A DNA stretch of 64,000 nt, from the NCBI GenBank assembly GCA_964572405.1, contig CAZNGL010000002.1:1061-65060 (forward strand). The letters are read 5' to 3'. The notes below the pieces were generated by a model, which was given only the letters and a program-made list of their open reading frames with translations, was not told the DNA's origin and ran no database searches. Source of the DNA: an uncultured Bacteriovoracaceae bacterium (lineage in GTDB: Bacteria; Desulfobacterota; Desulfomonilia; UBA1062). Within the stretch, counting starts at the first letter, position 1, and every line of letters begins with the position of its first letter. Below, in pieces: positions 12,092 through 63,729 of the stretch. A program made the position numbers and the translations under genes.

Positions 12092-12149
12092 TCTTTTCCT
12101 GTACATTCCCGAAACAGCCCTGTAGGAGGGCAGCAACAGGACGTCAGCC

Positions 12150-29365: not shown

Positions 29366-29379
29366 AGGGTTGTGAGGGC

Positions 29380-46508: not shown

Positions 46509-46511
46509 GAT

Positions 46512-46805
46512 ATGGCGAAGCCGATGGATCAGATCACGTGGCAGGAGCTGGAAACCGGCGCGGTCGTCGTCGAGGTCGGGAATTCAACCCAGTACGAGAC
46601 GGGTTCTTGGCGGTCCGAGCGCCCGGTGGTGGAGAAGGAGAAGTGCATCAAGTGCATGTACTGCTGGCTGTACTGTCCGGAGGCGTGCATCCACCAGGCA
46701 GAGGAGGGGCACTTCGAGGCGGACCTGAGGTACTGCAAGGGGTGTGGGATCTGCGCGACAGAGTGCCCGGCGAAGTGCATCACCATGATCAGCGAGGAGA
46801 AGTGA
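46512..46805 (+). CDS. 2-oxoacid:ferredoxin oxidoreductase delta subunit (ferredoxin), operon 2
   Basis: Two 4Fe-4S motifs (CIKCMYCWLYCP, CKGCGICATECP). Confidence 0.8.
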   Translation: MAKPMDQITWQELETGAVVVEVGNSTQYETGSWRSERPVVEKEKCIKCMYCWLYCPEACIHQAEEGHFEADLRYCKGCGICATECPAKCITMISEEK

Positions 46806-46808
46806 GCC

Positions 46809-47987
46809 ATGGCCAAGGTACGAAAGGGAGTCGAGGTATCCATCGCCATCGCCGACGCCGTGGCGCAGGCTGACGTGGACGTGATCGCGGCCTATCCCAT
46901 CACGCCCCAGACACACATCGTGGAGCACCTGTCCGAGATCGTGGCGGACGGTGAGCTGGACGCGGAGTTCATACCTGTGGAGAGCGAGCACTCGGCCATG
47001 AGCGTGTGCTGCGGGTCGTCGGCCGTGGGCGCCCGCACGTTCACCTCCACGAGCTCGCAGGGACTCGCGCTCATGAGCGAGATCTTCTTCATCGCTGCCG
47101 CCATGCGGCTGCCCATGGTGATGGCGCTGGCGAACCGTTCGCTTTCGAGCCCGCTGTCCATCTGGAACGACCACTCCGACGTGATGATGGTGCGGGACGC
47201 GGGGTGGATCCATGTATTCGTGGAGAACGGGCAGGAGACGTACGACAACATCTTCTGCGCCTTCCGGATGTCGGAGGACCCGGAGGTGATGCTGCCCGTG
47301 GCGGTGAACCTGGACGGGTTCATCCTGACGCACATGATCGAGCCGGTCATGTACGAGGACGACGAGCTCATCCGGAAGTACCTGCCGCCCTTCAAGATGA
47401 AGAACGCGCTGCACCCGGACAACCCCGTGTCCATGGGGTGCTTCGGCATGCCCGAGATCTACACCGAGGCGCAGATGAACCGGGAGACGGGGGTGAGGAA
47501 CTCCTACCCGCACATCATCAGGGCGTGGGACGAGTGGGGCAGGCTCACCGGGAGGAACTACCATCCCGTGGAAACCTACCGCGCGGACGACGCGGAGTAC
47601 TGCATCGTGACCATGGGCTCCTACGGGGAGACGGCCATGGAGGTGGTGGACACGCTGCGGGAGCAGGGCGAGAAGGTGGGGGTGATCAAGATCCGGCTGT
47701 GGAGGCCGTTCCCCTTGGAGGAGTTCCGCAAGGCCGCGCTCGGCAAGAAGCACCTCATCGTGCTCGACCGGGCGATCTCCTTCGGGACCCAGGGAGGCCC
47801 GGTGGCCACCGAACTGCGTTCCGCCCTCTACGGCAAGCCCGGCGCCCCGAGCGTCGTGAACTACGTGGCGGGCCTTGCGGGCAGGGACGTGTCGAGGAAG
47901 GACTTCACGAACATCATCCTTGAAGGCAGGAAGAAGGCGGCCTCCGGCGATACCGAAGGCTTCACCCTGTACGGGTTGAGGGGCTAG
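46809..47987 (+). CDS. 2-oxoacid:ferredoxin oxidoreductase alpha subunit, operon 2
   Basis: AYPITPQTHIVEHLSE N-terminal motif. 392 aa. Confidence 0.85.
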   Translation: MAKVRKGVEVSIAIADAVAQADVDVIAAYPITPQTHIVEHLSEIVADGELDAEFIPVESEHSAMSVCCGSSAVGARTFTSTSSQGLALMSEIFFIAAAMRLPMVMALANRSLSSPLSIWNDHSDVMMVRDAGWIHVFVENGQETYDNIFCAFRMSEDPEVMLPVAVNLDGFILTHMIEPVMYEDDELIRKYLPPFKMKNALHPDNPVSMGCFGMPEIYTEAQMNRETGVRNSYPHIIRAWDEWGRLTGRNYHPVETYRADDAEYCIVTMGSYGETAMEVVDTLREQGEKVGVIKIRLWRPFPLEEFRKAALGKKHLIVLDRAISFGTQGGPVATELRSALYGKPGAPSVVNYVAGLAGRDVSRKDFTNIILEGRKKAASGDTEGFTLYGLRG

Positions 47988-47998
47988 GGAGACTCAGC

Positions 47999-48931
47999 AT
48001 GGCAAAGACGTCTGTTTCATCTCCGAAGAATGTAGAGCGGGCCGAGTACCTTGCGTCGGGTCACCGGGCGTGCCAGGGGTGCGCGGAGGTCCTGGCGGTA
48101 CGGCTGGTCCTGAAGGCGCTCGGCAAGGACACCATCGTGGCCATGGCCACGGGATGCATGGAGATCATCACGTCGCCGCTGCCCATCACATCGTGGCGGG
48201 TGCCGTGGATCCACAACGCCTTCGAGAACCCTTCCGCGGTGATCTCGGGGTGCGAGGCCGGGATGAAGGCGATGATGCGCAAGGGAAAGCTGCCGCAAAA
48301 GAAGATCAACTTCGTGGGCATGGGGGGCGACGGGGCCACGGCGGACATCGGCTTCGGGCAGCTGTCCGGGGCGCTCGAGCGCGGCCACGACATGATCTAC
48401 GTGTGCTACGACAACGAGGCCTACATGAACACCGGGATCCAGCGGTCGTCGTCCACGCCGTACGGTGCGAGCACCACCACGAGTCCTGCGGGGAAGAAGA
48501 GCATCGGGCAGCAGACGCAGAAGAAGAACATGGTGGAGATCTGCGCGGCGCATGGCATACCCTACGTGGCCACGGCGTGCCCGAGCTTCCCCTTCGATCT
48601 TTTGGACAAGGTGAAAAAGGCATCCGAGACACCGGGGCCGGCATACATCCACATCCTGTCGGTGTGCCCCACGGGGTGGAGGATCCAGCCCGCCGACGCC
48701 ATCAAGTACGGTCGGCTGGCCGTGAACTCCTGCGTGTTCCCGCTCTATGAAGTGGTGGACGGGAAGCACCGGCTCACCTACAAGCCCTCCGAGAAGAAAC
48801 TCATCCCGGTCTCGGAATACCTCGGCGGCCAGGGCAGGTTCAGGCACCTCACCGACAAGGACATCGAACAGATCCAGGCCGCGACCACCCGCACCTATGA
48901 ACGTCTCCTCAGACTGAGCGAGCAGGAATGA
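47999..48931 (+). CDS. 2-oxoacid:ferredoxin oxidoreductase beta subunit (TPP-binding), operon 2
   Basis: GGDGATADIG...CYDNEAYMNTG TPP motif. CQGCAE cysteines. Confidence 0.85.
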   Translation: MAKTSVSSPKNVERAEYLASGHRACQGCAEVLAVRLVLKALGKDTIVAMATGCMEIITSPLPITSWRVPWIHNAFENPSAVISGCEAGMKAMMRKGKLPQKKINFVGMGGDGATADIGFGQLSGALERGHDMIYVCYDNEAYMNTGIQRSSSTPYGASTTTSPAGKKSIGQQTQKKNMVEICAAHGIPYVATACPSFPFDLLDKVKKASETPGPAYIHILSVCPTGWRIQPADAIKYGRLAVNSCVFPLYEVVDGKHRLTYKPSEKKLIPVSEYLGGQGRFRHLTDKDIEQIQAATTRTYERLLRLSEQE

Positions 48932-49027: not shown

Positions 49028-49057
49028 TTGACAGGGGCTGAATTTATTGGCTAGCAT
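49028..49057 (+). promoter_or_regulatory. Candidate sigma-70 promoter for ffh (-35 TTGACA, 18 bp, -10 TAGCAT)
   Basis: TTGACAggggctgaatttattggcTAGCAT about 35 nt upstream of the ffh ATG. Confidence 0.3.
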
Positions 49058-49089: not shown

Positions 49090-50559
49090 ATGCTGGAACT
49101 GATTTCTGATGGATTTCGAAAGGCCCAGGACATTCTCCAGGGCAAGGTCGTCATCCAGGAGAAGCATATCGAAGACGCGGTCAAGGAGATCCGCCTTTCG
49201 CTCCTGGAAGCGGACGTGGAGTTCCATGTGGTCAAGGAGTTCATCGACCACGTGAAGGAGAAGGCACTGGGGGAGATCGTCCACACCAAGGTCGCCCACG
49301 GCGGGAAAAAGATGAAGGTCTCCCCTGAGAACCACTTCGTCAAGATCTGCTACGACGAACTCGTGGGACTCATGGGGCCGGTGGACACCTCCCTGAAGTT
49401 CGGCGGGAGGGCGGTCAATGCCGTCATGATGGTGGGACTCCAGGGCAGCGGCAAGACCACCACCACGGCCAAGATCGCCCGGTTCATCCAGAAGCAGGGC
49501 AGGAAGCCCATGATGGTGGCCGCCGACATCTACCGGCCCGCCGCCATCGAGCAGCTCAAGGTTCTCGGCAATCGACTGGACATCCCGGTGTTCCATGCCC
49601 CGGGCAAGACCCCGCCGCAGATCTGCAGGGACGCCATGGAGGCGGCCCAGTTCAAGGGCTGCAACGTGGTGCTCTTCGACACCGCGGGCCGCACCATCGT
49701 CGACGACACCCTCATGCAGGAACTGGAGGATATCAAGGCTGCGACGAACCCGGAAAACATACTGCTCGTGGTGGATGCCATGATCGGCCAGGAATCCGTC
49801 AACGTGGCCAGGGAGTTCGACCGGAGGCTCGACCTCTCGGGGTTCATCCTCACCAAGCTCGACGGCGATGCCAGGGGCGGTGCGGCGCTGTCCATCAAGG
49901 AAGTGACCAAGAAGCCGGTGAAGTTCCTCGGCATGGGCGAGTCACTGGACCGCATCGAAGAGTTCCGGCCTGAAGGGCTCGCGTCACGTATCCTCGGGCA
50001 CGGGGACATCGTGGGCCTGGTCAAGGACTTCGAGGAGGTCATGGACGAGAAGAAGGCCGAAGAGGATGCAGAGAAGCTCCTGAGAGGTGACTTCACCTTC
50101 GACGACTTCCTCAAGCAGCTCAAGGTCATGAAGAAGATGGGCTCGCTCACCGACATCATCGGCAAGCTCCCCCTGGGCCAGTTCGGCATGCCCCAGGGGA
50201 TGAAGGTGGACGACAAGGAGATCGTGCGGGTGGAGGCCATCATCAGCTCCATGACCACGCATGAGCGGAATCACCCGGACTGCCTGAACGACAGCCGCAT
50301 CAGCCGGATTTCGAAGGGGTGCGGCCAGCCCCGGCCCAAGGTGGTGGAGCTCATCGCGCGGTTCAACACCATGAAGCAGGTCATGCTGGGGCTCGGCATG
50401 GGCAAGAAGAAGGTGCTGGGCAAGCTCGGCGTGAACCCGAACATCGCGGGGGTGTTGGAGAAGGGGGCGCCCAGGCCGCCCAAGAAGAACCTCGTGGACC
50501 TCAAGAAACGCAGGGACAAGAAGAAGACAGCGAAGAAGTCAAAGAAGCGCAACCGCTAG
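49090..50559 (+). CDS. ffh: Signal recognition particle protein Ffh
   Basis: N/G domains with GLQGSGKTTT P-loop, DTAGR and TKLDGDARGG. Met/Lys-rich C-terminal M domain. Confidence 0.9.
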   Translation: MLELISDGFRKAQDILQGKVVIQEKHIEDAVKEIRLSLLEADVEFHVVKEFIDHVKEKALGEIVHTKVAHGGKKMKVSPENHFVKICYDELVGLMGPVDTSLKFGGRAVNAVMMVGLQGSGKTTTTAKIARFIQKQGRKPMMVAADIYRPAAIEQLKVLGNRLDIPVFHAPGKTPPQICRDAMEAAQFKGCNVVLFDTAGRTIVDDTLMQELEDIKAATNPENILLVVDAMIGQESVNVAREFDRRLDLSGFILTKLDGDARGGAALSIKEVTKKPVKFLGMGESLDRIEEFRPEGLASRILGHGDIVGLVKDFEEVMDEKKAEEDAEKLLRGDFTFDDFLKQLKVMKKMGSLTDIIGKLPLGQFGMPQGMKVDDKEIVRVEAIISSMTTHERNHPDCLNDSRISRISKGCGQPRPKVVELIARFNTMKQVMLGLGMGKKKVLGKLGVNPNIAGVLEKGAPRPPKKNLVDLKKRRDKKKTAKKSKKRNR

Positions 50560-50581: not shown

Positions 50582-52576
50582 ATGGGGAACAGGGAGTCCA
50601 TGGAGAGCAAGGAGCTGATCATCTTCCGGAGGATCAACGAGGCCATCTCGCTGTCCCCCGATGTGGAGGCCGTGGCCCGGGCCATCCTGGATATCGTCAT
50701 CGACTGCACGCCCGGGGAGAATGCCTCCATCATGATGCCAGGTTCAGACGGATCGCACCTGGAGATTAAGGCGGCCAAGGGCAGGAAGGACAAGAAAGGC
50801 AGGTATTCCGAGAAATCCCTGGGCCAGGTCTTCGCCATGGGCGAGGGCATCGCGGGCACGGCCGCCTCCACCAGGAAATCGGTGATCATCCACGACACCT
50901 CCACGGACACCCGCTTCCAGGCCCGCAACAGCAAGGTCAGCGTCGGCTCCATCCTGAGCCTGCCCATGATCTACAGCAAGGACGAGCTGGTGGGCGTGCT
51001 CAACGTGAGCCACCCGAGCCCCCATGCCTTCCATGAGGACGACCTCGGCATCATCTCGGGGCTGCTGTCGCCTGCGGCCCTGGCGCTGAGGAACGCACGG
51101 CTCATGCGGGAGGTGGACGAGGTCAACAGGATGCTCAAGGCCGAGCTCTCCATGACGGACAAGGCCATGGCGGAATTCGGCAGGAGCATCCTCAAGGTGT
51201 TCAACTGGATGTCCATCGGCGTGCTCACCACCGACCCGAAGGGATCCATCTCCACCATCAACAAGCGCGCCTGCGAGATGCTGGGCAAACGGGCCGGGCA
51301 GAGCATCACGGACGTGGTGGGCAGCGAGATCATCCAAGCCATCGTGTCCCGCAAGGAAGGCCTGTCCCTGGACGTGGAACGCTCTGGCAGGATATACAGC
51401 TTCGATCTGTCCCTCCTCCCGCTGAAGCCCACGTGGCAGGTGGTGGCGTGCGTCAGGGACGTGACCGTGGAACGGTTCAAGGAGAAGGAACTCGTCCGGG
51501 TCAAGGACCAGTACAAGGACATGGTGGAGAAGGCCATCGACGCCGTCTACATCATCCGCAACGGCCGTTTCCTCCTGGTGAACCGGAAGTTCCAGGACAT
51601 GCTCGGCTACGAACCGGACGAGATCCTGAACCGGCATTTCCGGCACATCCTGCCCCGGGAGTCGCTCCACACCCTTGCCCTTGCCCTGCGCACCGTCAAG
51701 GGGAACATCTTCGTGCCCAACCTGGAGATCCAGGCCATCCGGAAGGACGGCCAGACGGTCTTCCTGGAAATCAGCATCGGCAGGATCATGATCGACAACG
51801 ACGAGTGCTACGTGGGGGTGGTCCGGGACATCACCAGCAAGAAGGAACTCCTCACCATGAAGACCCGGTTCCTGAACGTGGCATCCCACGAGATCCGGGT
51901 GCCGCTCACCGTGATCCGGGGCTACGGGAGGATGCTGGCGCGGGACACGGAATGCGCGCTCACCGACGGGCAGCGGGAGTGCATCGACGAGATCGAGAAG
52001 CAGTGCGAGAAGCTGCTGAGATTCTCCAACTCGCTCCTGGATTTTGCCAAGGTCCATTCCGAGAAGTTCACCCTGAACAGGGAACAGGTGAACATGGCGG
52101 ACTACATCAGGGGAATCACCCGGAATCTGCAGATCAGCGCAAAGGAAAAGAACGTCACGATCCTGTTCAGGGATCTCGGCGGCGTGGAGACCCTGTGCAT
52201 CGATCCCATCCGGTTCGAACAGGCCCTGACGAACCTCATCGACAACGCGGTGAAGCACTCCCCCGAGGGGTCCGAGGTGGAGGTGACCCTGTCGCTGGCC
52301 CGGTCGGACAGCGAGAGCCTGAGGATGTTCTTCCACCAGGAAAGTGCGCTGATCTCGGTGCAGGACCAGGGGCCGGGCATCAAGACCGACGAGGCCCGGG
52401 AGCTCTTCAAGGACTTCTTCGTGGGCACCAGCGGCAGGGCCAAGGGCGGCATAGGCCTGGGCCTGGCCATCACCCGGGAGATCGTCCATGCCCACGGAGG
52501 ACAGGTGGAGGCGCGTTCATCCGATAAGGGCGGGCATTTCATCGTCACAATACCCTTGAAGTGGCAAGATTATTAA
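50582..52576 (+). CDS. Cytoplasmic GAF-PAS sensor histidine kinase
   Basis: GAF (N-terminal), two PAS-like segments, H-box SHEIRVPLTVIRGY, HATPase N/G boxes (LIDNAVKHSPEGS ... GGIGLGLAITREIV). No TM helices seen. Confidence 0.8.
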   Translation: MGNRESMESKELIIFRRINEAISLSPDVEAVARAILDIVIDCTPGENASIMMPGSDGSHLEIKAAKGRKDKKGRYSEKSLGQVFAMGEGIAGTAASTRKSVIIHDTSTDTRFQARNSKVSVGSILSLPMIYSKDELVGVLNVSHPSPHAFHEDDLGIISGLLSPAALALRNARLMREVDEVNRMLKAELSMTDKAMAEFGRSILKVFNWMSIGVLTTDPKGSISTINKRACEMLGKRAGQSITDVVGSEIIQAIVSRKEGLSLDVERSGRIYSFDLSLLPLKPTWQVVACVRDVTVERFKEKELVRVKDQYKDMVEKAIDAVYIIRNGRFLLVNRKFQDMLGYEPDEILNRHFRHILPRESLHTLALALRTVKGNIFVPNLEIQAIRKDGQTVFLEISIGRIMIDNDECYVGVVRDITSKKELLTMKTRFLNVASHEIRVPLTVIRGYGRMLARDTECALTDGQRECIDEIEKQCEKLLRFSNSLLDFAKVHSEKFTLNREQVNMADYIRGITRNLQISAKEKNVTILFRDLGGVETLCIDPIRFEQALTNLIDNAVKHSPEGSEVEVTLSLARSDSESLRMFFHQESALISVQDQGPGIKTDEARELFKDFFVGTSGRAKGGIGLGLAITREIVHAHGGQVEARSSDKGGHFIVTIPLKWQDY

Positions 52577-52614
52577 TGTATTTTGAAGCCGGAAAATTAT
52601 AGGGTTGGGTGGTG

Positions 52615-54033
52615 ATGAAAGAGAATATCCGGATACTGATTGTCGATGACGACGAGAGTATCCGCAGGTACATCGTCAAGCTGCTGACGCAGGGCGGGTA
52701 CGATGTGTCTGCGGTTTCCAGCGGCAAGGAGGCCCTGCGCGAACTGAGGGCAGGGCAGGAGTTCTCCCTGGTGATCCTCGACATCCTCATGCCTGACATG
52801 GACGGCCTGGAGACCCTCGGGGAGATCAGGAAGATATCCAAGGATCTGCCGATCCTCATGCTCTCGGCGCTCGGCCAGACCAACATCATCGTGAAGGCCA
52901 TGAAGGCCGGAGCCACCGATTACCTGGTGAAGCCCTTCGAGGAGGACGAGCTCGATCTGGCCATCACCAAGTCTCTGGAGAAGCGCAAGCTGCTTTCCGA
53001 GATCTCGAGCCTTCGCAAGCAGCTGCGGGTGGACGAGCTCAAGGGGGAGTTCATCTACAACAGCCCCAAGATGCAGAAGGTCAAGGAACTCGTGGATCAG
53101 GTTGCCGAGACGGACGTGAGCGTGCTCATCGAGGGCGAGAGCGGCACCGGCAAAGAGCTCGTGGCCCGGGCCCTGCACTACAAGTCCCGCCTCAGGGACA
53201 AGCCCTTCGTCAAGGTGAACTGCGCCGCGCTGCCCCATGACCTGCTGGAGTCGGAGCTCTTCGGGTACGAGCGGGGGGCCTTCACCGGCGCCTACCGGTC
53301 CAAGCCGGGCAAGTTCGAACTGGCGAACAACGGGACCATCTTCCTGGACGAGATCGGCGAGATGGACATGGCCATCCAGTCCAAGCTCCTGCAGGTCCTC
53401 CAGGAGGGTACCTTCTCCCGCCTGGGCGGCAAGCAGGACGTCCAGGTGAACGTCCGCGTCATCGCCGCAACCAACCGCGACCTGAAGAAGGCCATCGAGC
53501 AGGGGACGTTCCGGGAAGACATCTACTACCGGCTCAACGTGGTGAGCGTCAACATCCCCCCCCTGACGGACCGCAGGGAGGACATCACCTACCTCTTCGA
53601 ATACTTCCTGGACACGTACAACGAGAAGTACGGCAAGAACATCCAGGTGAACAAGGACGAGCTCTACCCCATGCTCGTGTCCTATCCATGGCCGGGCAAT
53701 GTCCGGGAGCTCAAGAACCAGGTCAAGCGCCTTGTCATCCTGGGAAACATCGACGAGATGGTCCAGTATCTCAAGGGCAGCGCCGCCGTGGTCATGGAGA
53801 AACGGTCACTGGAGATCCGCGACAGGGGTCTCGAGGTCCCGGCTCCCAGCGATCCGGCCGAGATCACGCCGCTCAAGCTCGCCGCCAAGGAGGCCACCCT
53901 GAAGGCCGAGCGGGACATGATCCTAAAGGCGCTGCGCGGAACGAACTGGAACAAGAAGAAGGCGGCCCATCTCCTGCAAGTGAGCTACAAGGCGCTTCTG
54001 TACAAGATCAAGGAATGCGGTATCGAGAAATGA
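52615..54033 (+). CDS. Sigma-54-dependent response regulator (NtrC family; PEP-CTERM-locus PrsR-like)
   Basis: Receiver (ILIVDDDESIRRY...ILDILMPDMDG). AAA+ with GESGTGKEL and GAFTGA. C-terminal HTH. GTG-GTG-ATG start region. Confidence 0.85.
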   Translation: MKENIRILIVDDDESIRRYIVKLLTQGGYDVSAVSSGKEALRELRAGQEFSLVILDILMPDMDGLETLGEIRKISKDLPILMLSALGQTNIIVKAMKAGATDYLVKPFEEDELDLAITKSLEKRKLLSEISSLRKQLRVDELKGEFIYNSPKMQKVKELVDQVAETDVSVLIEGESGTGKELVARALHYKSRLRDKPFVKVNCAALPHDLLESELFGYERGAFTGAYRSKPGKFELANNGTIFLDEIGEMDMAIQSKLLQVLQEGTFSRLGGKQDVQVNVRVIAATNRDLKKAIEQGTFREDIYYRLNVVSVNIPPLTDRREDITYLFEYFLDTYNEKYGKNIQVNKDELYPMLVSYPWPGNVRELKNQVKRLVILGNIDEMVQYLKGSAAVVMEKRSLEIRDRGLEVPAPSDPAEITPLKLAAKEATLKAERDMILKALRGTNWNKKKAAHLLQVSYKALLYKIKECGIEK

Positions 54034-54047
54034 AAGGGGGCACGACG

Positions 54048-54593
54048 ATGAAGAGGAGCATGGTCCTGTGTCTGCTCGTGTGGATGGCGCTGCCGGTGGC
54101 CGTCATGGCCGAGGAGTCCGCGTACCTCATCGGTGCCTCCGATCTGCTGGAGATCTCTGTCTGGGGGGAGCAGAACCTCTCCCGGCAGGCATCCGTGAGG
54201 AGCGACGGGTTCATATCCCTGCCGCTGGTCGGCGATGTCCTCGCAGTCGGCAGAACCCCGGTGCAGCTCAAGGCGGATCTCGAATCCCTTCTGGCGAAAT
54301 TCATCAAGGACCCGCGCTGCGCGGTTATCGTCCTGGAGCCGAGGAGCAAGCGGTTCTATGTGCAGGGCCAGGTCGCGACCCCGGGACAGTACACCCTTGA
54401 CAAGGACCTCACGCTGACCCAGGTCATCCCCATAGCGGGCGGGTTCACCCAGTGGGCCGACGAGGACGATATCGTCATCCTCCGTGAGGAAGGGGACAGG
54501 AGAGTCAGGCTGGAGATCGATTACAACAGGATCGTCAAAGGCAAGGACCAGGATGTCCCCATCAGACCGGGAGATACCATCATAGTCCCGTGA
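54048..54593 (+). CDS. Periplasmic polysaccharide export protein (Wza/EpsE-like, PEP-CTERM-locus type)
   Basis: Signal peptide. Polysaccharide export PES motif region (LIGASDLLEISVWGE ... PLVGDVLAVGRTPVQL). AAAGGGGG RBS. Confidence 0.7.
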   Translation: MKRSMVLCLLVWMALPVAVMAEESAYLIGASDLLEISVWGEQNLSRQASVRSDGFISLPLVGDVLAVGRTPVQLKADLESLLAKFIKDPRCAVIVLEPRSKRFYVQGQVATPGQYTLDKDLTLTQVIPIAGGFTQWADEDDIVILREEGDRRVRLEIDYNRIVKGKDQDVPIRPGDTIIVP

Positions 54594-55840
54594 GGAATAT
54601 CACGTTTCTTTGCATCATTGCCCTTGCACCGATCCTGGTGCCGGCGGCAGGGTATGCCGCATTCACCTACGAGGCGCATCCGGGGATCTACAACTCGTAT
54701 GAGTACACCGACAACTATTACGGCGGCGTTCGGGACGCCCGGAGCGAGGGAACATACCTCGTGGGTCCGAGCCTGGGCATTACCGCGGTCTCTCCCACGA
54801 TCAATCTGGACTTCACCGGAAGGTACACCAAGAGCTTCCACAGGCGGTTCTCCGAGGATGACAGCCCGGAGGTACACCTGTCGTCCAGCGCATCCTATTC
54901 GGTCCCAAGACAGGTTTCACGTCTGACATACACCTTCACCAGGACGCTGACGCGGGAGAACCTCAGCGAACCCTTCGGCGAGGCCAGGATCCATACCGGA
55001 GGCATCTCCTCGTCATGGGAGCTGACCCGGCGGACATCGCTGCAGCTCGGGTATGATATCACGGCCGAGCGAAGGTCCGGAGACGCGGCGACGGAGGAGG
55101 ACGTGACGTCACATACGGGGAACCTTGGATGCACCCATGCCATGAGTCCGGTGAGTCGGGTGGGCATGACGGTACAGCAGGTGCGCCATGAGTACGAAGA
55201 GAGCGAGAATGTCATCGAGACAGGCGGGACGGTGAGCGGGGGATACGATGTCTCACCGGTCTTCACCTTGGGGGCCGTATCGTCCTACTACCACGAAGAC
55301 CGAGGCGACCTGCCGGGTGAGGACCGCTATGACGCACGCCTCACCGGGAACTATGCGTTTCCCAGGGGAATAACCCTGCGCATGGAGGGCGGCTGTCGCT
55401 GGCTCGTCACGGAAGGACAGGACCGCGAGACCGGATTTGCGGGCAGCGCATTCCTGGCCAAGGATCTGGAGCACGACAGATTCAGCCTGCGTGTTGCCAA
55501 GGAGTACACCTCGGAGTTCACCACGAACCGCTACGGCACCTATGACACCACCTCCGGATCCTTCGAGTGGCACAGGGACATTGACAGGGGTTTATCGACC
55601 GCTGCAAGATACTCCGTTGACAGGCGAAGGCCCGTCAGGGGAACCGATGATGAGGACCAGACGGACGACAATGCCGGATTCACCATCGACTGGAATCCTG
55701 TCGAGGCGTATGCCCTTTCCTGGGACCCCATCGAAGAAGTCCTCGTTACCCTGGCCTATAATCATCTCAGAACCAAATATGAGACTTCAGGCACGGCCCG
55801 GGAAAACCGATACAGGGTTATGGTAGAGGTGCGATATTGA
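54590..55840 (+). CDS. Predicted outer-membrane beta-barrel protein of the EPS locus (PEP-CTERM-associated OMP-like)
   Basis: Signal peptide. Alternating hydrophobic/Tyr-rich strands. C-terminal aromatic residue (Y). GTG start overlapping the upstream stop. Confidence 0.5.
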   Translation: MRNITFLCIIALAPILVPAAGYAAFTYEAHPGIYNSYEYTDNYYGGVRDARSEGTYLVGPSLGITAVSPTINLDFTGRYTKSFHRRFSEDDSPEVHLSSSASYSVPRQVSRLTYTFTRTLTRENLSEPFGEARIHTGGISSSWELTRRTSLQLGYDITAERRSGDAATEEDVTSHTGNLGCTHAMSPVSRVGMTVQQVRHEYEESENVIETGGTVSGGYDVSPVFTLGAVSSYYHEDRGDLPGEDRYDARLTGNYAFPRGITLRMEGGCRWLVTEGQDRETGFAGSAFLAKDLEHDRFSLRVAKEYTSEFTTNRYGTYDTTSGSFEWHRDIDRGLSTAARYSVDRRRPVRGTDDEDQTDDNAGFTIDWNPVEAYALSWDPIEEVLVTLAYNHLRTKYETSGTARENRYRVMVEVRY

Positions 55841-57372
55841 CGGAACAGGTGAAAAACATCACGATCCAGGACCTCATCGACGCACTCATCAGGAAATGGT
55901 ACTGGGTGAGCATCCCCCTTCTATTCTTTCTCCTGATGGGAGTCTGGTTCTATGTCGTGTACCCAAGGACCTATGAGGCCACCACCCTGATCCTGGTACA
56001 GTCTCAGGAGATTCCCCAGTCCTACGTAGCGGCAACAGTGAGTCAGGATGTGTCGGAGCGGGTACGCACCCTCTCCCAGGAGGTACTCTCCAGGTCGAAT
56101 CTGGAGGCCATCATCAACGAGATGCATCTCTTTAGGGAGGAGAAGAACAAGGGGACGTCCATGGACATCCTTGTAGCTGCCCTTCGTAAGCGGATCACAG
56201 TTAACACCAACGTAGGGCCGCGGAATGAGACGAGCTCGTTCACCATCACCTATAAAGGAAGGGAGCCGAAAGAGGTGGCCGATGTCACCAACCGGCTTGC
56301 CTCTTATTTCATTGACAGCAACCTCAAACTCAGGGCAAGACAGGCCAGTGAGACGACCATCTTTCTGCAGAAACAGCTTGAGGAGCTCAAAGCCCTGCTT
56401 GACAAGCAAGAAGCGCAGGTCCAGGAGTACAGGAACCAGTACATTGGCGAACTGCCTGACCAGCTGCAGAGCAACATCTCCACCATCACCAGCCTCCAGA
56501 TGCGCCTGGAGTCTTCCCAGGCGTCCCTCACCGAGGCCATGAACCGGCGTCTGACCATCCAGGGTCAGCTCTCTTCGGCTGAATCAGGAAGCCCTGGGAC
56601 CATATCCCAGCGGGGACAGCGGATTGCGGAGCTTAGGAACCAGCTCGAAGAGATGAAATCGAGATATACGCCCCAGCACCCGGAGATAAAGAGAATCGAG
56701 GACCAGATTGCAGAACTGGAGAAACAACCAGACAGGAGAACCACGGCCCATGTCGACCCCCGGGTGATGGACCTGAGGACCCAGCTGAACAACGCGAGCA
56801 TCGAGGTGGAGTCGCTCAGGGCGGATGTGAATAGGATAAAGGCCCAGATAGATCAGTACCAGAGCCGGGTGGAAGGCACCCCGAAGCGCGAGCAGGAGCT
56901 TGCAGCGCTCACCAGGGATTACAACATCACCCAGCAGAACTACCAGCGGCTTTTGGACAGGTTCTATGAGGCGAAGCGTGCCGAGGACATGGAGAAAAGG
57001 CAGCAAGGGGAACAGTTCCGCGTCGTGGACTATGCCCATCTGCCCGAGGTCCCGGTGAGCCCGAATCCCATGAGGATCGCGTTGATTTTTCTCACCCTGG
57101 GTCTGGGTACAGGGGCAGGGATCATCATCATGCTCGAGCTGCTCGATTCCACCGTCAAGGGAGTCAAACAGCTTGAACAATGGTCTGGCGAAATTCCCTG
57201 CATCTCCGCCATTCCGCTGGCCATGACGGAAACAGACAAGCACAGGCAGTACCTCATGAACATCCTCTTCCTTGGTATCAACGGGGCCATCATTGTAGTG
57301 GGTGCTGTCATCATAATAGTATCAAAGGTCATGAACCTGGTTATCGACCTGCCCATGCCGCTTCCGTTCTGA
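55837..57372 (+). CDS. Polysaccharide co-polymerase (chain-length determinant, Wzz/GumC-like PCP)
   Basis: N-terminal TM. Long periplasmic coiled-coil. C-terminal TM. No kinase domain (the kinase is a separate gene at 58947). Confidence 0.7.
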   Translation: MTEQVKNITIQDLIDALIRKWYWVSIPLLFFLLMGVWFYVVYPRTYEATTLILVQSQEIPQSYVAATVSQDVSERVRTLSQEVLSRSNLEAIINEMHLFREEKNKGTSMDILVAALRKRITVNTNVGPRNETSSFTITYKGREPKEVADVTNRLASYFIDSNLKLRARQASETTIFLQKQLEELKALLDKQEAQVQEYRNQYIGELPDQLQSNISTITSLQMRLESSQASLTEAMNRRLTIQGQLSSAESGSPGTISQRGQRIAELRNQLEEMKSRYTPQHPEIKRIEDQIAELEKQPDRRTTAHVDPRVMDLRTQLNNASIEVESLRADVNRIKAQIDQYQSRVEGTPKREQELAALTRDYNITQQNYQRLLDRFYEAKRAEDMEKRQQGEQFRVVDYAHLPEVPVSPNPMRIALIFLTLGLGTGAGIIIMLELLDSTVKGVKQLEQWSGEIPCISAIPLAMTETDKHRQYLMNILFLGINGAIIVVGAVIIIVSKVMNLVIDLPMPLPF

Positions 57373-57383
57373 GGGGAGGGACG

Positions 57384-58943
57384 ATGTACCGGGAGCACTT
57401 CGGCCTCAAGCTCAAACCCTTCTCCATCACCCCTGATCCGAAGTTCCTGTACATGAGCCCGGGGCACAAGGAGGCCCTGGCGCACCTGCTGTACGGGCTC
57501 AAGGAGGCCAGCGGCTTCGTGGTCATCACCGGCGAGGTGGGAACCGGCAAGACCACGATCCTGAACGCCTTCCTGCTGAAGCTGCCGCCCAGGATCCCCA
57601 AGGTGGTCATCAAGAACCCGCACATCAAACCGGACAACCTCTACTTCCTGCTGGGAGAGGCCATCGGCATGCCCGAGGAGAAACGCTCCCGCAACTACAT
57701 CAACGAGTTCGAGGACCGTCTGAAGGCCACCGGGGGGGTGGTCCTCATCTGCGACGAGGCCCAGGGGCTGTCCCTCGAGATGCTCGAGGAGATCAGACTG
57801 CTCTCGAACCTGGAGACAGTGCACGAGAAGCTGGTGCAGATCATGCTGCTGGGCCAGCAGGAGCTGAACGAAAAGCTCAGCAGCCCCCAGCTCAGGCAGC
57901 TCAAGCAGCGCATCGGCGTCAAGTACCACATCCCCCCCCTGGACACCAGCGAGACCAGGGACTACATCGACCACCGGCTCAGGGTGGCGGGGTACGAGCC
58001 CAGGGAACAGCCGCTGTTCACGTCATCGGCCCTCGGTGAGATCTACCGGTATACCCGGGGCTTCCCCAGGCTCATCAACATCGTCTGCGACAACGTGCTG
58101 CTGGCCGCCTACAGCGATGACCAGACCCAGGTGAGCGCAACCCTGGTGAAGAAGGTCGTGGGAGGCATGGAGAAGACCTACGAGCGCCATGTCCCCCATG
58201 TCCCCGGCCAGAGGGCCGGCACCGGCGGGCGCTTGGGAGTCTGGATGGCCGTGGCCGCGATATCGGGAGCGATCGTCGTGGCTGCCCTGATCGCTCTGGC
58301 GCTGTATACACCCATGGGGCGGGACCTTGCTGGCAGGGCCGGCATCATGACCGGGGGGCGGACAGGACAGCCTGCCGCCATGACCACCCCGGTGGGACAG
58401 CGGGATGCTGCCGAGGCCGCCCTCGAGCCCGATGCCATGCCGGAAGTGACCCTCGAGGACCAGGCCGGGAGGGACGCAGTCCTCTCTGCAGGTGGGGCGG
58501 GCCAGAAGGCCCCCGGAGGGACCACCGTGGTCGTGGGGCCCAGGGATACCGTTGCCAGGATCGCCGCGAGGCACTACGGGAGGATCGATGCGGACATCCT
58601 GGAACTCGTGCGGCGGGCCAACACCCATCTGGGCAGTATCGACCTGATCTACGAGGGGCAGAAGATCTACCTGCCGCCCCTGGCGGGAGGCACCCAGGCG
58701 GTGTTCACGGTGAGCGTGGCCACGTACCATTCCATCAACGAGGCCACCGCCGTATTCCTGGACCTGGTGAAGAAGGGGTTCAAGGCCACCGTGTACCCCT
58801 TTCTGGATGCCAACGGGAATACCTGGTACCGTGTCACCATCGGGACGTTCCCGAGCCTCGATGAGTCCGATGCCTATGCCGGCGAGCTCAAGGGCAAGGG
58901 ATTTCTTTATGCGCGGTCGGTGAAGGTGAGCGTGGAGGGATAG
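57384..58943 (+). CDS. ExeA/GspA-like AAA ATPase fused via a TM helix to LysM-like and SPOR peptidoglycan-binding domains
   Basis: Walker A GEVGTGKTT, Walker B VLICDEAQ. TM LGVWMAVAAISGAIVVAALIALALY. LysM-like VVVGPRDTVARIAARHYG...YEGQKIYLPP. SPOR FTVSVATYHSINEATA...WYRVTIGTF. GAGGGGAGGG RBS. Confidence 0.7.
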   Translation: MYREHFGLKLKPFSITPDPKFLYMSPGHKEALAHLLYGLKEASGFVVITGEVGTGKTTILNAFLLKLPPRIPKVVIKNPHIKPDNLYFLLGEAIGMPEEKRSRNYINEFEDRLKATGGVVLICDEAQGLSLEMLEEIRLLSNLETVHEKLVQIMLLGQQELNEKLSSPQLRQLKQRIGVKYHIPPLDTSETRDYIDHRLRVAGYEPREQPLFTSSALGEIYRYTRGFPRLINIVCDNVLLAAYSDDQTQVSATLVKKVVGGMEKTYERHVPHVPGQRAGTGGRLGVWMAVAAISGAIVVAALIALALYTPMGRDLAGRAGIMTGGRTGQPAAMTTPVGQRDAAEAALEPDAMPEVTLEDQAGRDAVLSAGGAGQKAPGGTTVVVGPRDTVARIAARHYGRIDADILELVRRANTHLGSIDLIYEGQKIYLPPLAGGTQAVFTVSVATYHSINEATAVFLDLVKKGFKATVYPFLDANGNTWYRVTIGTFPSLDESDAYAGELKGKGFLYARSVKVSVEG

Positions 58944-58946
58944 ACG

Positions 58947-59711
58947 ATGCACATTCTGAAGGCACTGGAAAAGCAGGAACACGAGCTGACCGCTGAAGGC
59001 GGCGCCCTTGGGCCACTCGACGACCATCTCTACATGCACCACATGCCCTATTCGTACACGGCCGAGCAGATCCGCAAGCTCAGGACCCACATCTTCCACA
59101 TGTCCGACAGGCCGGTACCCAGGATCATCATGGTGACGAGCGCCCTGCCCGGGGAGGGCAAGAGCGTCATCTCGTCGAACCTCGCCATCGCCATCGCAAA
59201 GGGGGAAGACCAGCAGGTCCTGCTCGTGGACTGCGACCTGAGGAAGCCTTCCCTGCACGAGCTCTTCAAGTACCCCCACTCCAAGGGGGTGAGCGAGATC
59301 CTGCAGGGCAAGGCCGACATCTCGGAGTGCCTCATCAGCACCCCCATCGACAAGCTCACCATCCTGCCCGCTGCCAAGGAACCCCCTGCCAACCCTTCCG
59401 AGCTCCTGGAGTCGCGCAAGACCGGCGCACTCATCCAGAGCCTCGCGGCCCGGGAGGGGGACTGGTTCATCGTGGTCGACACGTCGCCCATCCAGGCCAC
59501 CGTGGACCCCAAGATCCTCTCCGACGTGGTGGACGGCATCGTCATGGTGGTCCGGTACCGGTACACCAGGGAGGCCGAGTTCAAGATGGCCCTGGAGGCG
59601 CTCCCCAAGGAGAAGATCATCGGCACGGTGCTCAACGCCGTGGACGAGCTGCCCGTGAAGAAGTACACCTACAAGAAATACAAGTACTACAAGAACTACT
59701 ACAACCGTTGA
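58947..59711 (+). CDS. BY-kinase-type (CpsD/Wzc C-domain-like) tyrosine autokinase ATPase with C-terminal tyrosine cluster
   Basis: Walker A PGEGKS, A' LLVDCDLRKP, B FIVVDTSP. C-terminal KKYTYKKYKYYKNYYNR Tyr cluster. Confidence 0.75.
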   Translation: MHILKALEKQEHELTAEGGALGPLDDHLYMHHMPYSYTAEQIRKLRTHIFHMSDRPVPRIIMVTSALPGEGKSVISSNLAIAIAKGEDQQVLLVDCDLRKPSLHELFKYPHSKGVSEILQGKADISECLISTPIDKLTILPAAKEPPANPSELLESRKTGALIQSLAAREGDWFIVVDTSPIQATVDPKILSDVVDGIVMVVRYRYTREAEFKMALEALPKEKIIGTVLNAVDELPVKKYTYKKYKYYKNYYNR

Positions 59712-59797: not shown

Positions 59798-60484
59798 ATG
59801 CTCCGGCGCATCTTCTCCCATGTCTTCCCTGTCCGATGCCTCGTGTGCGGAGCCTGCACCAAAGACCATATCTCTGGGGTGTGTCCTCGGTGTGCCTCCC
59901 TGGTGGAACCGGTGCCCCGGCCGGTCTGCAAGGTGTGCGGCAGCCCGTCTGCATCCGAAGGCCCCTGCCTGCGGTGTCAGGTCGACCCGCCGCCGTACGA
60001 CAGGCTGGCGAGCGCCGCGCTCTTCGCAGGACCCTTGAAGGACATGATCCATGCCTTCAAGTATGCCGATGCCACGTACTACAAGGGGTTCCTCGCCCGA
60101 ATGCTCTATGACCTGGTGGGCGCGGATGTCCGGAACTGCGACGTGATCACCTTCGTTCCCCTGCACTGGAGCAGGATGGTGTCACGGGGGTACAACCAGT
60201 CCGCGATCCTCGCGCGGGAGCTCTCGGGCATGACCGGCGTCCCGGTGGGGTACGGCATCCTGAAGAAGCTTCGGGGCACGCCCCCGCAGGTGGGGCTCAC
60301 CCGGCAGGGGAGGGAACGCAACATTCGAGGCGCATTCCGTGCGCAGGGTGTGGCTGGCAGGGCGGTCATGGTGGTGGACGACGTGGTCACCACCGGGTAC
60401 ACCGCCCGGGAGGTCTGTGGTTCATTGAAGAGGGCAGGGGCGGACTATGTGCTCTTTGCCAGCGTGGGGAGGATCCCTGCATGA
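59798..60484 (+). CDS. ComF/GntX-family protein (double zinc ribbon + phosphoribosyltransferase domain)
   Basis: N-terminal CxxC x4 (CLVCGAC...CPRC...CKVCGS...CLRC). PRTase motif VMVVDDVVTTGYT. Confidence 0.75.
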   Translation: MLRRIFSHVFPVRCLVCGACTKDHISGVCPRCASLVEPVPRPVCKVCGSPSASEGPCLRCQVDPPPYDRLASAALFAGPLKDMIHAFKYADATYYKGFLARMLYDLVGADVRNCDVITFVPLHWSRMVSRGYNQSAILARELSGMTGVPVGYGILKKLRGTPPQVGLTRQGRERNIRGAFRAQGVAGRAVMVVDDVVTTGYTAREVCGSLKRAGADYVLFASVGRIPA

Positions 60485-61383
60485 GCCCCTTGAGACAGCC
60501 GGGCAAGAAGGATCCGCGGTACCTGGAAGACATCACCTACTCTGTGGCCACGCAGCCCGTGAACAAGAACGACCCCTTCGCCTCCTCGCTCTTCATGGGC
60601 AGGTACGAAGAGCGAACGCTCATGGAGATGCTCGACAGGACCGGCATGATCGGCATCCTCCACAGGAGGGGATACCGTAATCTGGTGGTGAACGTCGTCA
60701 GGCAGGACGACTACACCTCCCGGCTCTACGTGAACTTCGACTCCGACCAGAGCGATTCGCGTCTCATCGAGCTGGTGGTGCGGGAGGGCGTGTTCAGGCC
60801 GAAGGAGAACTTTGTCCCGGCGTACGACTTCTCCGGCGGCCTGTCCATGCTTCTCATCGAATGGGTCGCCCTGCAGGACCCGAGGGCGCAGTTCACTCCG
60901 GACAAGCCGAGACTCCCAGGACAGCAGTACCCGGGCCTGGGTGGGCTGAAGAACATGCAGGACTTTCTCTACAAGCTCGGGAAGCTCACCGGCAAGGACG
61001 CCATCGTGGACGTGCCGGAGTACTTCCATTCGGCCGCAATCTATTCCCGCCTCTACACGGAGATCTACGACCGCATGTACGCATTCTTTTCCCCCGTGGA
61101 TGCGGGCATCATGCAGGCCGTGCTCCGGGATATCACGGGGAGGCCCCTGGCCGAGATTTCCTTTGCCATCGCCTTTGACTGCCTGCTCGACAGGCGCACC
61201 GGTGCCCGGGTGAAGTGGCGGCCCTCGGAGCAGATCTACCCCATCACGAAGAAGCTTCACCGCTATGTGGAGGACGAGCAGTACAAGCGGATCGTGCTGC
61301 AGACCATGGATGAGCGGGCGTTCGCCATGGACTGGGAACGCTACGAGCACATCAAGGCCCAGGGGTTGATGGATGAGATATAG
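60481..61383 (+). CDS. Conserved hypothetical protein (no recognisable motif)
   Basis: 300-aa ORF translationally coupled on both sides (ATGA overlap with comF; 11-nt overlap with the downstream gene). Coding-like composition. Confidence 0.4.
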
Positions 61384-62647
61384 CTTCGGCATCGTCGGCC
61401 TCGGCAGGGTGGGCGGGGCAATGCTCGCCATGCTCCGGGACGCGGGACATTCGCCCGTCTGGGCGGTGTCATCGAAGCAGGAAGCCTTTGGTATCCCGGT
61501 AACCGGCACGCCCCCCGCATCTCCCGGCGGGGCCCAGGTGGTGCTCATCGCGGTGCCCGACGGTCATATCCGTGAGGTCTCCCTCCGGATCGCCAGGACC
61601 TGGGAAGGGGCGTGCAGGGGGATCGTGTTCCTCCACCTGAGCGGCCTGCTGACCTCCGAAGAACTCTCCGCCCTGTCGGAGCAGGGGGCCGAGGTGGGCA
61701 GCCTCCACCCCCTGCAGTCCATACCCGATGCCACACGGGCACGACAGATCCTCAAGGGAAGCCTGTTCACCTTCGAGGGGACCCGGGGTGCCGGAGAGGC
61801 CGCCCGTATGATAGCGGCATCCCTGGGCGTGGAGATGATCCCGATCTCGCGGGAAAACAAGGTCCTCTACCACGCCTCCGCCGTCATGGCATCGAACTAC
61901 CTGGTGGCACTCATGGATCAGGCATCACAGGTGATTGCGTCGACCGGCCTCTCGCTCGGGCATCTCATGCCGCTGGTCAGGGGGACCCTTGCCAACGTAG
62001 AAGCCCAGGGCGGCAAGGCCCTGACGGGTCCTGTGACGCGGGGCGACTGGTCCACGGTACGGGCCCATGTGGATGCCCTCAGGGGTAGATTCCCCGACCT
62101 GCTCCCCGCATACCTCGAGCTCGGCAGGTACACGGCGCGCCTGGCGGGCCGCCGGTTCCCGGAGGAACTGGTCGCATATCCCACCCTTGCAGGCCTCGAT
62201 GAGCTCTGTGACATCCTCGCGACGAAGAGGGCGCGGGGTATGAGGGTGGTCTTCACCAACGGCTGCTTCGATATCATTCATGCAGGTCATGTCACCTACC
62301 TGGCCAGGGCCCGCTCCCTGGGAGACTGCCTGGTGGTGGGGCTCAACTCGGACGAGTCTGTGAGGCGGATCAAGGGGCAGGGCCGCCCGGTGAACACCGA
62401 GCATGCGCGAGCGGCCGTACTCGGAGCGCTCTCGAGCGTGGACCATGTGGTGCTCTTCGGCGAGGATACGCCGTTGCGTCTCATCGATCGTATCCGGCCG
62501 GATGTCCTGGTAAAGGGGGGAGACTGGGCCGTTCAGGACATCGTGGGCGCAGACGTGGTACGCGCAGCGGGCGGAGAGGTGCTGACCATCCCCTTTGAGG
62601 AGGGTTTTTCCACCACCGGAATCATCGGGCGGATCAGAAGGGACTGA
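61373..62647 (+). CDS. Fusion: N-terminal Rossmann-fold DUF2520/NADP-oxidoreductase-like domain + C-terminal HldE domain II-type cytidylyl/adenylyltransferase (D-glycero-D-manno-heptose-1-phosphate adenylyltransferase-like)
   Basis: N-terminus [12 protein letters not shown] dinucleotide-binding motif. C-terminus [18 protein letters not shown] (HxGH nucleotidyltransferase motif) and ISSTGII-like end. Confidence 0.7.
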
Positions 62648-62650: not shown

Positions 62651-63715
62651 CTAGAACCCTGCCCAGAAGCGCATGGCATACCGGCGGTCGGCCTTCTGGC
62701 CCGCATACGTTCCGATCTCCTCTGCATAGGTCAGAAAGTCGAGCCGCACGACACGTCCGTCAAGGCCAAGCCCTGCGGTGAAGTAGCCCTGGTACACACC
62801 CGCCCTCAGCTCGAGGAACTTCATGAGCTCGCACTCGGCCCCCATCCTGATGCGCTTGGCGATATCGTCGTCTGTGCCCAGCTGGGAGAAGATGTCGATG
62901 TAGTCAAAGGCCAGGGTGACTTTGGTCACCTTCAGGTCCAGGTCCTGGGCAATGCCGATGTCCACGTGATCATCCAGGTCCTCGGCGTCTGCGAGCTTGG
63001 ACCCGATGAGGTTGCTGGCGGAGACGCCGACCTTTGTGTCGCCCAGTCCGATGCTCGCGAGCCTGTAGATGACACCGAGGTCCAGGAGGATGCCGCTCCC
63101 GTCCTCGAGGTCATCCTCGATCCTCTCGTCGAAGTCGCTGTCCGCGATGTCGGTCACCGTGTAGATCTCGGATATGCTCTGGCGTCTTACGAATTTCAGG
63201 CTCGCACCGATGAGGAGCGAGTCGTCGAGGAGAGGGTGGCCGTATCCGGCGCCGAGCCCGTAATCCAGGATTCCCTGCACCTCGAGCTTGGGGTACTGCC
63301 GGTCATGGGCAGTGATGTCGGAGTGTGCGCTCCCGAAGGCGCAGAACGCGAAGCGGGGCATGGAGAACGATGGCACGAGGGAGAGCCCGAAGTGGGCCGT
63401 TTCCCCGATGTAGTCGCGCAGGAACTGTGCGGTCTCTGCCTCGCTGTCGAAGTCCACGTCCGCTGCGTCCTGATACATGTCCCACGACTTCTCGCTGAAT
63501 TCAATCTCCAGGGGGAAGATGGCCCCCCGTATGCTGCCGATGTCCGCAAGGCCTGCGGGGTTGTAGAACAGGGCGTTGGCGTCGTTCGAGACGGCGACAA
63601 AGGCGCCTCCCATGCCCATGGGCCGGATGCCCTTGTAGATGTAGGGGTACTCGGCAGCCATACCCGGTATGGACATGCAGCACAGGAGCATCACCCAGAA
63701 CAGGCGGTTCTTCAT
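62651..63715 (-). CDS. Outer-membrane beta-barrel protein, FadL/PorV-like
   Basis: Signal peptide. N-terminal GMGGAFVAVSNDANALFYNPAGLA motif reminiscent of FadL-family hatch region. C-terminal F. GAGGGGAGGA RBS for start 63715. Confidence 0.5.
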   Translation of the reverse strand: MKNRLFWVMLLCCMSIPGMAAEYPYIYKGIRPMGMGGAFVAVSNDANALFYNPAGLADIGSIRGAIFPLEIEFSEKSWDMYQDAADVDFDSEAETAQFLRDYIGETAHFGLSLVPSFSMPRFAFCAFGSAHSDITAHDRQYPKLEVQGILDYGLGAGYGHPLLDDSLLIGASLKFVRRQSISEIYTVTDIADSDFDERIEDDLEDGSGILLDLGVIYRLASIGLGDTKVGVSASNLIGSKLADAEDLDDHVDIGIAQDLDLKVTKVTLAFDYIDIFSQLGTDDDIAKRIRMGAECELMKFLELRAGVYQGYFTAGLGLDGRVVRLDFLTYAEEIGTYAGQKADRRYAMRFWAGF

Positions 63716-63729
63716 GGAATCCTCCCCTC

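Follow-up and report, generated by a model that had tools for sequence, protein, structure and literature searches.

Do polysaccharide export genes that resemble those accompanying the exosortase XrtA point to a complete XrtA/PEP-CTERM system, or can they form a module of their own? The question is raised by seven co-oriented genes packed into positions 50582-59711 (+ strand) of a 64,000-nucleotide (nt) stretch of contig CAZNGL010000002.1 (assembly GCA_964572405.1), termed the window herein, from an uncultured bacterium of the UBA1062 lineage of Desulfomonilia. According to the list of open reading frames (ORFs) and their translations, the genes encode, in this order, a histidine kinase (HK), a response regulator (RR), a short OPX protein, an outer-membrane protein (OMP), a chain-length determinant (PCP), an ExeA-like ATPase and a tyrosine kinase (BY-kinase), just as an initial annotation of the window had listed them (Table 1). 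We consider it likely that, within an exopolysaccharide pathway of the Wzx/Wzy type, the locus provides the half that handles trans-envelope export and chain-length control, and that it belongs to the lineage accompanying XrtA-like exosortases in the Desulfobacterota. It is a well-conserved stand-alone example of an export-module type that is already known, tidy but ordinary, and it leaves the current picture of polysaccharide export unchanged.

Export genes and the translocon that they encode

To assign the proteins to families, we used the curated NCBIfam cut-offs as the criterion for membership of each protein. For all five export proteins (OPX, OMP, PCP, ATPase and BY-kinase), the best NCBIfam model was one associated with XrtA/PEP-CTERM systems, and the generic Wza and Wzc models scored far lower, in agreement with the exosortase-style export set that had been proposed for this locus (Table 1). 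The BY-kinase also passes the generic model TIGR01007 (134.6 bits, cut-off 108.05 bits).

Table 1. Genes of the export locus, their neighbors and promoter-like matches in the window, with NCBIfam profile scores of the export proteins
Feature	Position	Strand	Description	Best XrtA-associated model (bits; cut-off)	Other models (bits)
HK	50582..52576	+	664 amino acids; GAF, PAS, PAS, HisKA, HATPase_c (Pfam)		
RR	52609..54033	+	474 amino acids; receiver, sigma-54 AAA+, HTH_8 (Fis-type)		
Short OPX	54030 or 54048 to 54593	+	181-187 amino acids; Poly_export and one SLBB	TIGR03027 (134.6; 180, below)	EpsY 117, generic export model 65
OMP (barrel)	54590..55840	+	416 amino acids; signal peptide, C-terminal Tyr, no Pfam match	TIGR03016 (18.3; 90.85, below)	
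PCP (chain-length determinant)	55837..57372	+	511 amino acids; Wzz and GNVR (Pfam)	TIGR03007 (279.5; 278.85, passes by 0.65)	EpsF 92.7, Wzc models ≤54
ExeA-like ATPase	57384..58943	+	AAA_22, one transmembrane segment, LysM-like stretch, SPOR	TIGR03015 (262.6; 324.5, below)	Sole real NCBIfam match
BY-kinase	58947..59711	+	Walker A, A' and B motifs; C-terminal tyrosine cluster	TIGR03018 (175.7; 230.65, below)	Wzc 123
ffh (SRP54)	49090..50559	+	Conserved neighbor 5' of the module; synteny in all complete loci of the window's clade		
ComF-family gene, 300-amino-acid gene, DUF2520-RfaE domain II fusion	59798..62647	+	NCBIfam, Pfam, synteny		
Sigma-70-like promoter match	49028..49057	+	TTGACA-18-TAGCAT, 10/12 positions, upstream of ffh		
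One-mismatch sigma-54 match	23834-23849	-	Between FlbD-like activator gene and flagellar rod/fliF genes		
One-mismatch sigma-54 match	647-662	-	Upstream of ORF at 1-581 (-)		
One-mismatch sigma-54 match	7565-7580	+	Before GGDEF gene		

The genes follow one another closely. The junctions between OPX and OMP and between OMP and PCP are 4-nt overlaps (GTGA and TTGA, respectively), so that the overlaps reported at 54590 and 55837 can be read directly in the sequence. The one reported at 54033/54048 depends on the OPX start codon: position 54030 gives an ATGA overlap with the RR gene, which is also present in relatives, whereas position 54048 leaves a 14-nt gap. Gaps of 11 nt and 3 nt separate PCP from ATPase and ATPase from BY-kinase, and 22 nt lie between the ffh stop and the HK start. 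The third-position GC contents of the barrel and PCP genes (0.71 and 0.74) differ from those of the flanking HK, RR and BY-kinase genes (0.88-0.92).

The OPX protein, described initially as a Wza-like exporter, contains the Pfam domains PF02563, PF10531 and PF22461; its C terminus is an SLBB domain, and neither a Wza_C helix nor GfcC is present. From its mature N terminus to its last residue it aligns with its best match in the PDB, the 186-residue solved chain 9n9a_A, deposited as "Polysaccharide export protein" (E = 1e-22). A hydropathy scan revealed signal peptides on the OPX protein (Sec, type I) and on the 416-residue OMP, which is modeled as an outer-membrane beta-barrel of about 20 strands (predicted structure). 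An architecture of Poly_export and SLBB alone defines class-3 OPX proteins (PMC9603273), which are without a membrane pore and work with a neighboring beta-barrel porin (PMC9603273, PMC9601211, PMC12819527); such a composite translocon has been demonstrated experimentally in Myxococcus xanthus (PMC9601211, PMC12819527). Both features are found here, namely, the OPX architecture and an adjoining gene for a large integral outer-membrane beta-barrel. Judged by sequence and predicted fold, the pair matches the known class-3 OPX/beta-barrel translocon, with the barrel, a diverged TIGR03016-type protein, as the presumed pore partner. This ties the TIGR03027/TIGR03016 pair to the recently established translocon type, and the exporter is better described as a class-3 OPX protein that needs the adjacent barrel, a point on which the earlier reading was silent.

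The closest experimental models are the EpsY-EpsX-EpsV and WzaB-WzpB-WzcB systems of M. xanthus, in which a short Poly_export-SLBB OPX protein likewise stands beside a large outer-membrane barrel and a PCP (PMC9601211, PMC9603273, PMC12819527); the EpsY and EpsV models are secondary matches for the window proteins. In M. xanthus, however, the barrel has 18 strands rather than the about 20 modeled here, and the OPX protein carries a lipoprotein signal peptide instead of a type I peptide. The window module furthermore adds the ExeA-like SPOR ATPase, and its kinase is a separate polypeptide. With the Wza-Wzc system of Escherichia coli group 1 capsules it shares the OPX/PCP/BY-kinase logic, the Walker motifs and the tyrosine cluster, but Wza is a lipoprotein of 359 residues whose D3 and D4 domains make up an alpha-helical pore of its own, and Wzc is a PCP fused to its kinase.

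Three hydrophobic segments were located in the PCP (at about residues 22-44, 412-436 and 471-509; scan for transmembrane windows). The ATPase consists of an AAA domain (residues 1-265), a transmembrane segment (about 281-313) and a periplasmic part with a low-complexity linker, the LysM-like stretch and SPOR, with Pfam scores of 88.8 (AAA_22), 33.5 (SPOR) and 20.1 bits (LysM). This architecture is conserved in relatives; a sequence search found no solved homologue. It is that of ExeA/GspA from type II secretion, which has the same cytoplasmic N-terminal AAA_22 domain, single transmembrane segment and periplasmic peptidoglycan-binding domain. The binding module of ExeA/GspA is PF01471, whereas the window protein has SPOR and the LysM-like stretch, and domain scans of the window's ORFs detected neither an ExeB/GspB partner nor a secretin. 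By analogy, the TIGR03015 ATPase with its peptidoglycan-binding SPOR domain is a candidate assembly factor.

The cytoplasmic BY-kinase has intact Walker A (PGEGKS), A' (LLVDCDLR) and B (IVVDTSP) motifs and ends in a tyrosine cluster, KKYTYKKYKYYKNYYNR, with seven Tyr within the last 17 residues. In an alignment, motifs and cluster are conserved in both groups of relatives described below. The idea that many kinases of the window's own clade are pseudokinases lacking Walker A was rejected on this alignment, in which P[GSA]EGK[ST] is conserved.

Relatives with and without exosortase genes

Related loci were collected from context look-ups and from GTDB species representatives and annotated with reference proteins. 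In the window's clade, the UBA1062-like Desulfomonilia (group A), they form an 11-gene block: ffh, HK, RR, OPX, OMP, PCP, ATPase, BY-kinase, ComF, the 300-amino-acid gene and the DUF2520-RfaE fusion. At least 16 GTDB species representatives and three other assemblies have the whole block, and eight short contigs show part of it in consistent order (seven with downstream genes); in one variant, L023, the downstream genes differ. Synteny holds for PCP identities as low as 50%. The PCP homologues (49-94% identity) make up a large uncultured clade, and the close relatives that carry a name are "Desulfomonilia bacterium" and "Syntrophaceae bacterium UBA1062" metagenome-assembled genomes; the window's own species is absent from the GTDB representatives, among which the best match shows 74% ATPase identity. 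The next PCP matches (37-41% identity) are XrtA-system PCPs of Desulfosarcina and Desulfatiglans. Since the same order is found in dozens of genomes, the arrangement is not due to chance. The ComF, 300-amino-acid and DUF2520-RfaE genes are synteny partners without a demonstrated functional link to the export module. The 300-amino-acid protein (60481-61383, +) has no Pfam or NCBIfam match; its gene overlaps both neighbors by a few bases, the ComF-family gene on one side and the DUF2520-RfaE fusion on the other, a position that it holds in every related locus, L054 (see below) among them.

A second group of relatives (group B), from the Desulfatiglandales/Desulfobacterales, comprises XrtA-like exopolysaccharide loci with the TIGR03027/03016/03007/03015/03018 set (Haft 2006, PMC1569441), for example, L006, L034, L036 and L043. 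The order OPX, OMP, PCP, ATPase-SPOR, BY-kinase is identical in all 8 loci; it is usual in this phylum for the ATPase gene to separate the PCP from its kinase, as was correctly pointed out for the window. Wherever upstream sequence is available, the OPX gene directly follows sigma-54 activator genes; the window has instead a complete pair of soluble HK and receiver-containing RR. Profile scores are similar (L006 versus window: OPX, 141.8 versus 134.6 bits; ATPase, 264.1 versus 262.6; BY-kinase, 182.1 versus 175.7), and the L006 OPX protein likewise remains under the TIGR03027 cut-off, while the L006 barrel passes TIGR03016. A profile-profile comparison matched the barrels of the two groups with 99.7% probability (E = 4e-25, 397 columns) at only 17% identity. 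The common gene order, the similar scores and the barrel match indicate that, by sequence, the window module truly shares ancestry with exosortase-linked export modules.

What distinguishes group B is the genes around the module, where the loci have an EpsB-type transferase or exosortase and PEP-CTERM genes, whereas the window's clade has none of these within reach. An EpsB-type transferase gene follows the kinase gene in four loci (L006, L037, L039 and L084) and is divergent upstream in L034, which also encodes a deacetylase; L006 continues with genes for ACP, an acyl-CoA ligase and an AsnB-type amidotransferase. Exosortase genes are present in three of the eight loci (L034, L036 and L043). 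All three products pass the generic model TIGR02602; XrtA is the best specific model for L036 and L043 (146-153 bits, cut-off 208), and XrtW scores higher for L034. The same three loci encode six canonical PEP-CTERM tails of the form VPEPATMLLLG...GRRKFFK, found with a regular expression. TGGCAY-N5-TTGCT sites, taken as sigma-54 promoters, closely precede three of these PEP-CTERM genes in L036 and L043, and in L034 such a site stands ahead of the OPX gene. The ORF at 5444-5923 of L006 ends in a tail that resembles PEP-CTERM but reads PEA instead of PEP (IPEAATMLLFGTGLVGISVIGRK); a TGGCAT-N5-TTGCT site inside the called ORF suggests that its true start is an internal MKKIIF.

Among the about 55 ORFs scanned across the 64-kb window, neither an exosortase nor an exopolysaccharide glycosyltransferase was found, as had been stated before. 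The regular expression that detects the six group B tails found no PEP-CTERM-tailed ORF in the window or in the group A loci, and within 10 kb of the latter (about 25 related genomes) there was no exosortase, EpsB-type transferase, deacetylase or PEP-CTERM ORF. The suggestion that the core of an exosortase system may lie beyond position 64000 is improbable: the genes downstream are comF, the 300-amino-acid gene and the DUF2520-RfaE fusion, with nothing exosortase-like within 10 kb in at least 16 species. We also searched a database of 5.8 billion proteins with an exosortase profile built from the group B loci. None of the best 120 matches is attributed to Desulfomonilia, which is weak evidence because most of these entries are unnamed.

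Two explanations of this absence have to be weighed. In the one favored by the initial annotation, the locus is the accessory part of a full XrtA/PEP-CTERM system whose exosortase, PEP-CTERM proteins, EpsB-type transferase and glycosyltransferases are encoded at another locus, the exported polysaccharide being linked to sorted proteins. The XrtA-associated models that score best, the nearest outgroup PCPs, which are named XrtA-system PCPs, and the sister loci of the same gene order, with their exosortase genes, PEP-CTERM genes and sigma-54 promoters, speak for a split system. On the other hand, no exosortase or PEP-CTERM ORF occurs in the window or in the 20-kb neighborhoods of about 25 relatives, the regulators are not PrsK/PrsR and the window's large TPR protein is not PrsT (see below), the profile search gave no Desulfomonilia-attributed exosortase among its best, mostly unnamed, matches (weak evidence), and the two exosortase contigs that were examined belong to other assemblies. 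We regard a split system as a real possibility, though one that falls short of probable.

The second explanation is that the sorting half was lost or never present, and that the genes now serve as a general exporter of envelope or biofilm polysaccharide among housekeeping genes. This would fit the stable position of the module, with ffh on one side and comF on the other, in at least 16 species, its tight coupling to a two-component pair that is not of the Prs type, the strong divergence of the barrel from TIGR03016 (18 bits, in addition to the low identity to group B barrels) and the lack of the local PEP-CTERM genes and sigma-54 promoters that group B loci possess. However, local absence is uninformative about the rest of the genome, and PCP, ATPase, kinase and OPX score on the XrtA-associated models like their exosortase-linked counterparts. 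An exosortase-independent derivative is likewise only a tentative proposal, and we give the two explanations roughly equal weight. The locus shows that XrtA-associated export genes can form a self-contained, stably inherited module away from exosortase, sugar transferase and PEP-CTERM genes, in a widespread, uncultured lineage of anaerobic digesters and sediments; an annotation as "XrtA system" made from these profile models alone may therefore mislead.

The two-component pair and its promoters

The two regulators had been compared to PrsK/PrsR, with the reservation that the kinase appeared to be soluble. By definition, PrsK is a transmembrane kinase (PMC1569441). The hydropathy scan of the HK, which is kept at the same position in all complete group A loci, contains no hydrophobic 19-residue window, indicating a soluble, cytoplasmic protein, and the PrsK model TIGR02916 is not among its 25 best NCBIfam matches; the reservation was thus justified. 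The RR, in which the GAFTGA motif is visible, reaches 448 bits with AtoC and 415 bits with NtrC but only 381.1 bits with the PrsR model TIGR02915 (cut-off, 502.6 bits). Its likeness to PrsR is generic, because an unrelated second regulator of the window (27962-29380) scores higher on the same model (425 bits). While the pair shares with PrsK/PrsR/PrsT (PMC1569441) the combination of an NtrC-type sigma-54 RR and a GAF-containing histidine kinase, it differs in the soluble kinase, the RR score below the cut-off, the lack of PrsT and the lack of a sigma-54 site in the cluster. On these profile and hydropathy results, HK and RR are not PrsK/PrsR, and the proposed match to the exosortase accessory genes stands for the five export proteins and their sister-lineage gene order but not for this pair.

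Another candidate for PrsT/PrsR was a TPR protein (916 amino acids) with the adjacent sigma-54 response regulator (25211-29380, -). It was rejected, as the TPR protein scored 33.5 bits on TIGR02917 (cut-off, 312.2) and the regulator 425 bits (cut-off, 502.6). This is the sole large TPR protein of the window, and it lies beside flagellar genes: together with an FlbD-like sigma-54 activator, the two genes occupy 23871-29380 (-), directly upstream of a fliF-G-H-I-J cluster.

A pattern scan for sigma-54 sites (-24 GG/-12 GC) found none in the intergenic sequence ahead of any gene of the cluster. The scan is not blind, since the same pattern detects plausible sites in group B loci and, within the window, ahead of several genes that include those of the flagellar rod (Table 1); three enhancer-binding proteins encoded in the window make it evident that the genome uses sigma-54. 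The only recurrent match in the cluster, at 53162, was rejected as a promoter: it is located inside the RR coding sequence, where it corresponds to a conserved AAA+ motif, about 870 nt from the OPX gene. With no sigma-54 promoter ahead of the export genes, the sigma-54 control ascribed to the cluster is an assumption, and the targets of the RR are probably elsewhere. Ahead of the block, the + strand has no promoter-like site other than the sigma-70-like match upstream of ffh, which makes co-transcription from this match possible; a sequence scan revealed no convincing terminator breaking up the block.

HK and RR might be mere synteny neighbors, part of an ffh-HK-RR-ATPase-comF backbone that does not control the export genes. 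This possibility is raised by L054 (Thermodesulfobacteriota LOGT_bin.0174), which retains ffh, HK, RR, two ATPase paralogues and ComF without OPX, barrel, PCP and kinase genes, so that regulators and ATPase may be components of the chromosomal backbone and not of the export module; the missing sigma-54 promoters are in line with it. Speaking for a connection are the RR stop and OPX start, which overlap or lie 14 nt apart, with the overlap kept in relatives, and the sigma-54 activators that group B also has directly upstream of the OPX gene. We therefore consider a purely positional association unlikely. In L054, the paralogues (9971-13031) are both TIGR03015-like, and the second has an FtsN/SPOR-like end; the ComF-unknown-RfaE genes are kept as well, and the export genes were either lost there or inserted in the window's clade.

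Proposed working of the module and other genes of the window

Several results weigh against reading the locus as the export half of a Wzx/Wzy-type pathway from the XrtA-accompanying lineage. Four of the five export proteins stay under the curated cut-offs of the XrtA-associated models, only the PCP passing, and neither the window nor the 10-kb surroundings in any close relative encode a priming transferase, Wzx, Wzy or glycosyltransferase. The role of the ATPase is argued by analogy, and TIGR03015 is a hypothetical equivalog. To these must be added the missing sigma-54 sites and the L054 locus, which has regulators and ATPase without the export genes.

For the export half that we nevertheless prefer, a working model can be drawn up, in which domain content, homology, barrel fold, synteny and the local absence of exosortase and transferase genes are the direct observations from which we infer interactions, ATPase role, regulon and substrate. 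By homology to related systems, the PCP would form an inner-membrane and periplasmic scaffold on which the BY-kinase docks, and cycles of phosphorylation and dephosphorylation of the kinase's C-terminal tyrosine cluster would gate polymerization and export. The class-3 OPX protein would serve as the periplasmic conduit and, because it is without a membrane-spanning helix, would pass the polymer to the adjacent barrel as the outer-membrane pore. The ATPase would be anchored in the inner membrane and bind peptidoglycan through SPOR; most likely it aids assembly of the machine through the cell wall or its anchoring there, by analogy with ExeA and the type II secretin. HK and RR are probably co-transcribed with the export genes, and the RR most likely activates sigma-54 promoters elsewhere, at unlinked biosynthesis genes.

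A more far-reaching version, which we find doubtful, holds that in the UBA1062-like clade the machine was permanently uncoupled from exosortase/PEP-CTERM sorting and taken up by a housekeeping operon that follows ffh, where a cytoplasmic GAF-PAS sensor controls it, and that the SPOR-bearing ExeA-like ATPase is a conserved core factor for assembly across the cell wall in class-3 OPX/barrel translocons, absent from the M. xanthus model.

The remaining ORFs of the window are housekeeping, flagellar, cyclic di-GMP (c-di-GMP) and oxidoreductase genes. A GGDEF diguanylate cyclase gene, with a PilZ gene immediately after it (7489-9456, +), and a gene for a PilZ and methyltransferase protein (38267-39781, -) represent c-di-GMP components that could bear on polysaccharide control; they are not linked to the cluster. 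An outer-membrane protein encoded at 62651-63733 (-) shows subthreshold similarity to PorV/PorQ (54.6 versus 90 bits) and similarity to TraF_2; a counterpart, for which the TraF_2 match was looked up, occupies the same position in the relative L001. Two gene sets for 2-oxoacid:ferredoxin oxidoreductases (alpha, beta and gamma) are present at 4243-7637 (-) and 45873-48931 (+). The second set, which ends shortly before ffh, has a syntenic counterpart in L001, and only beside this counterpart was a small ferredoxin-type delta gene seen.

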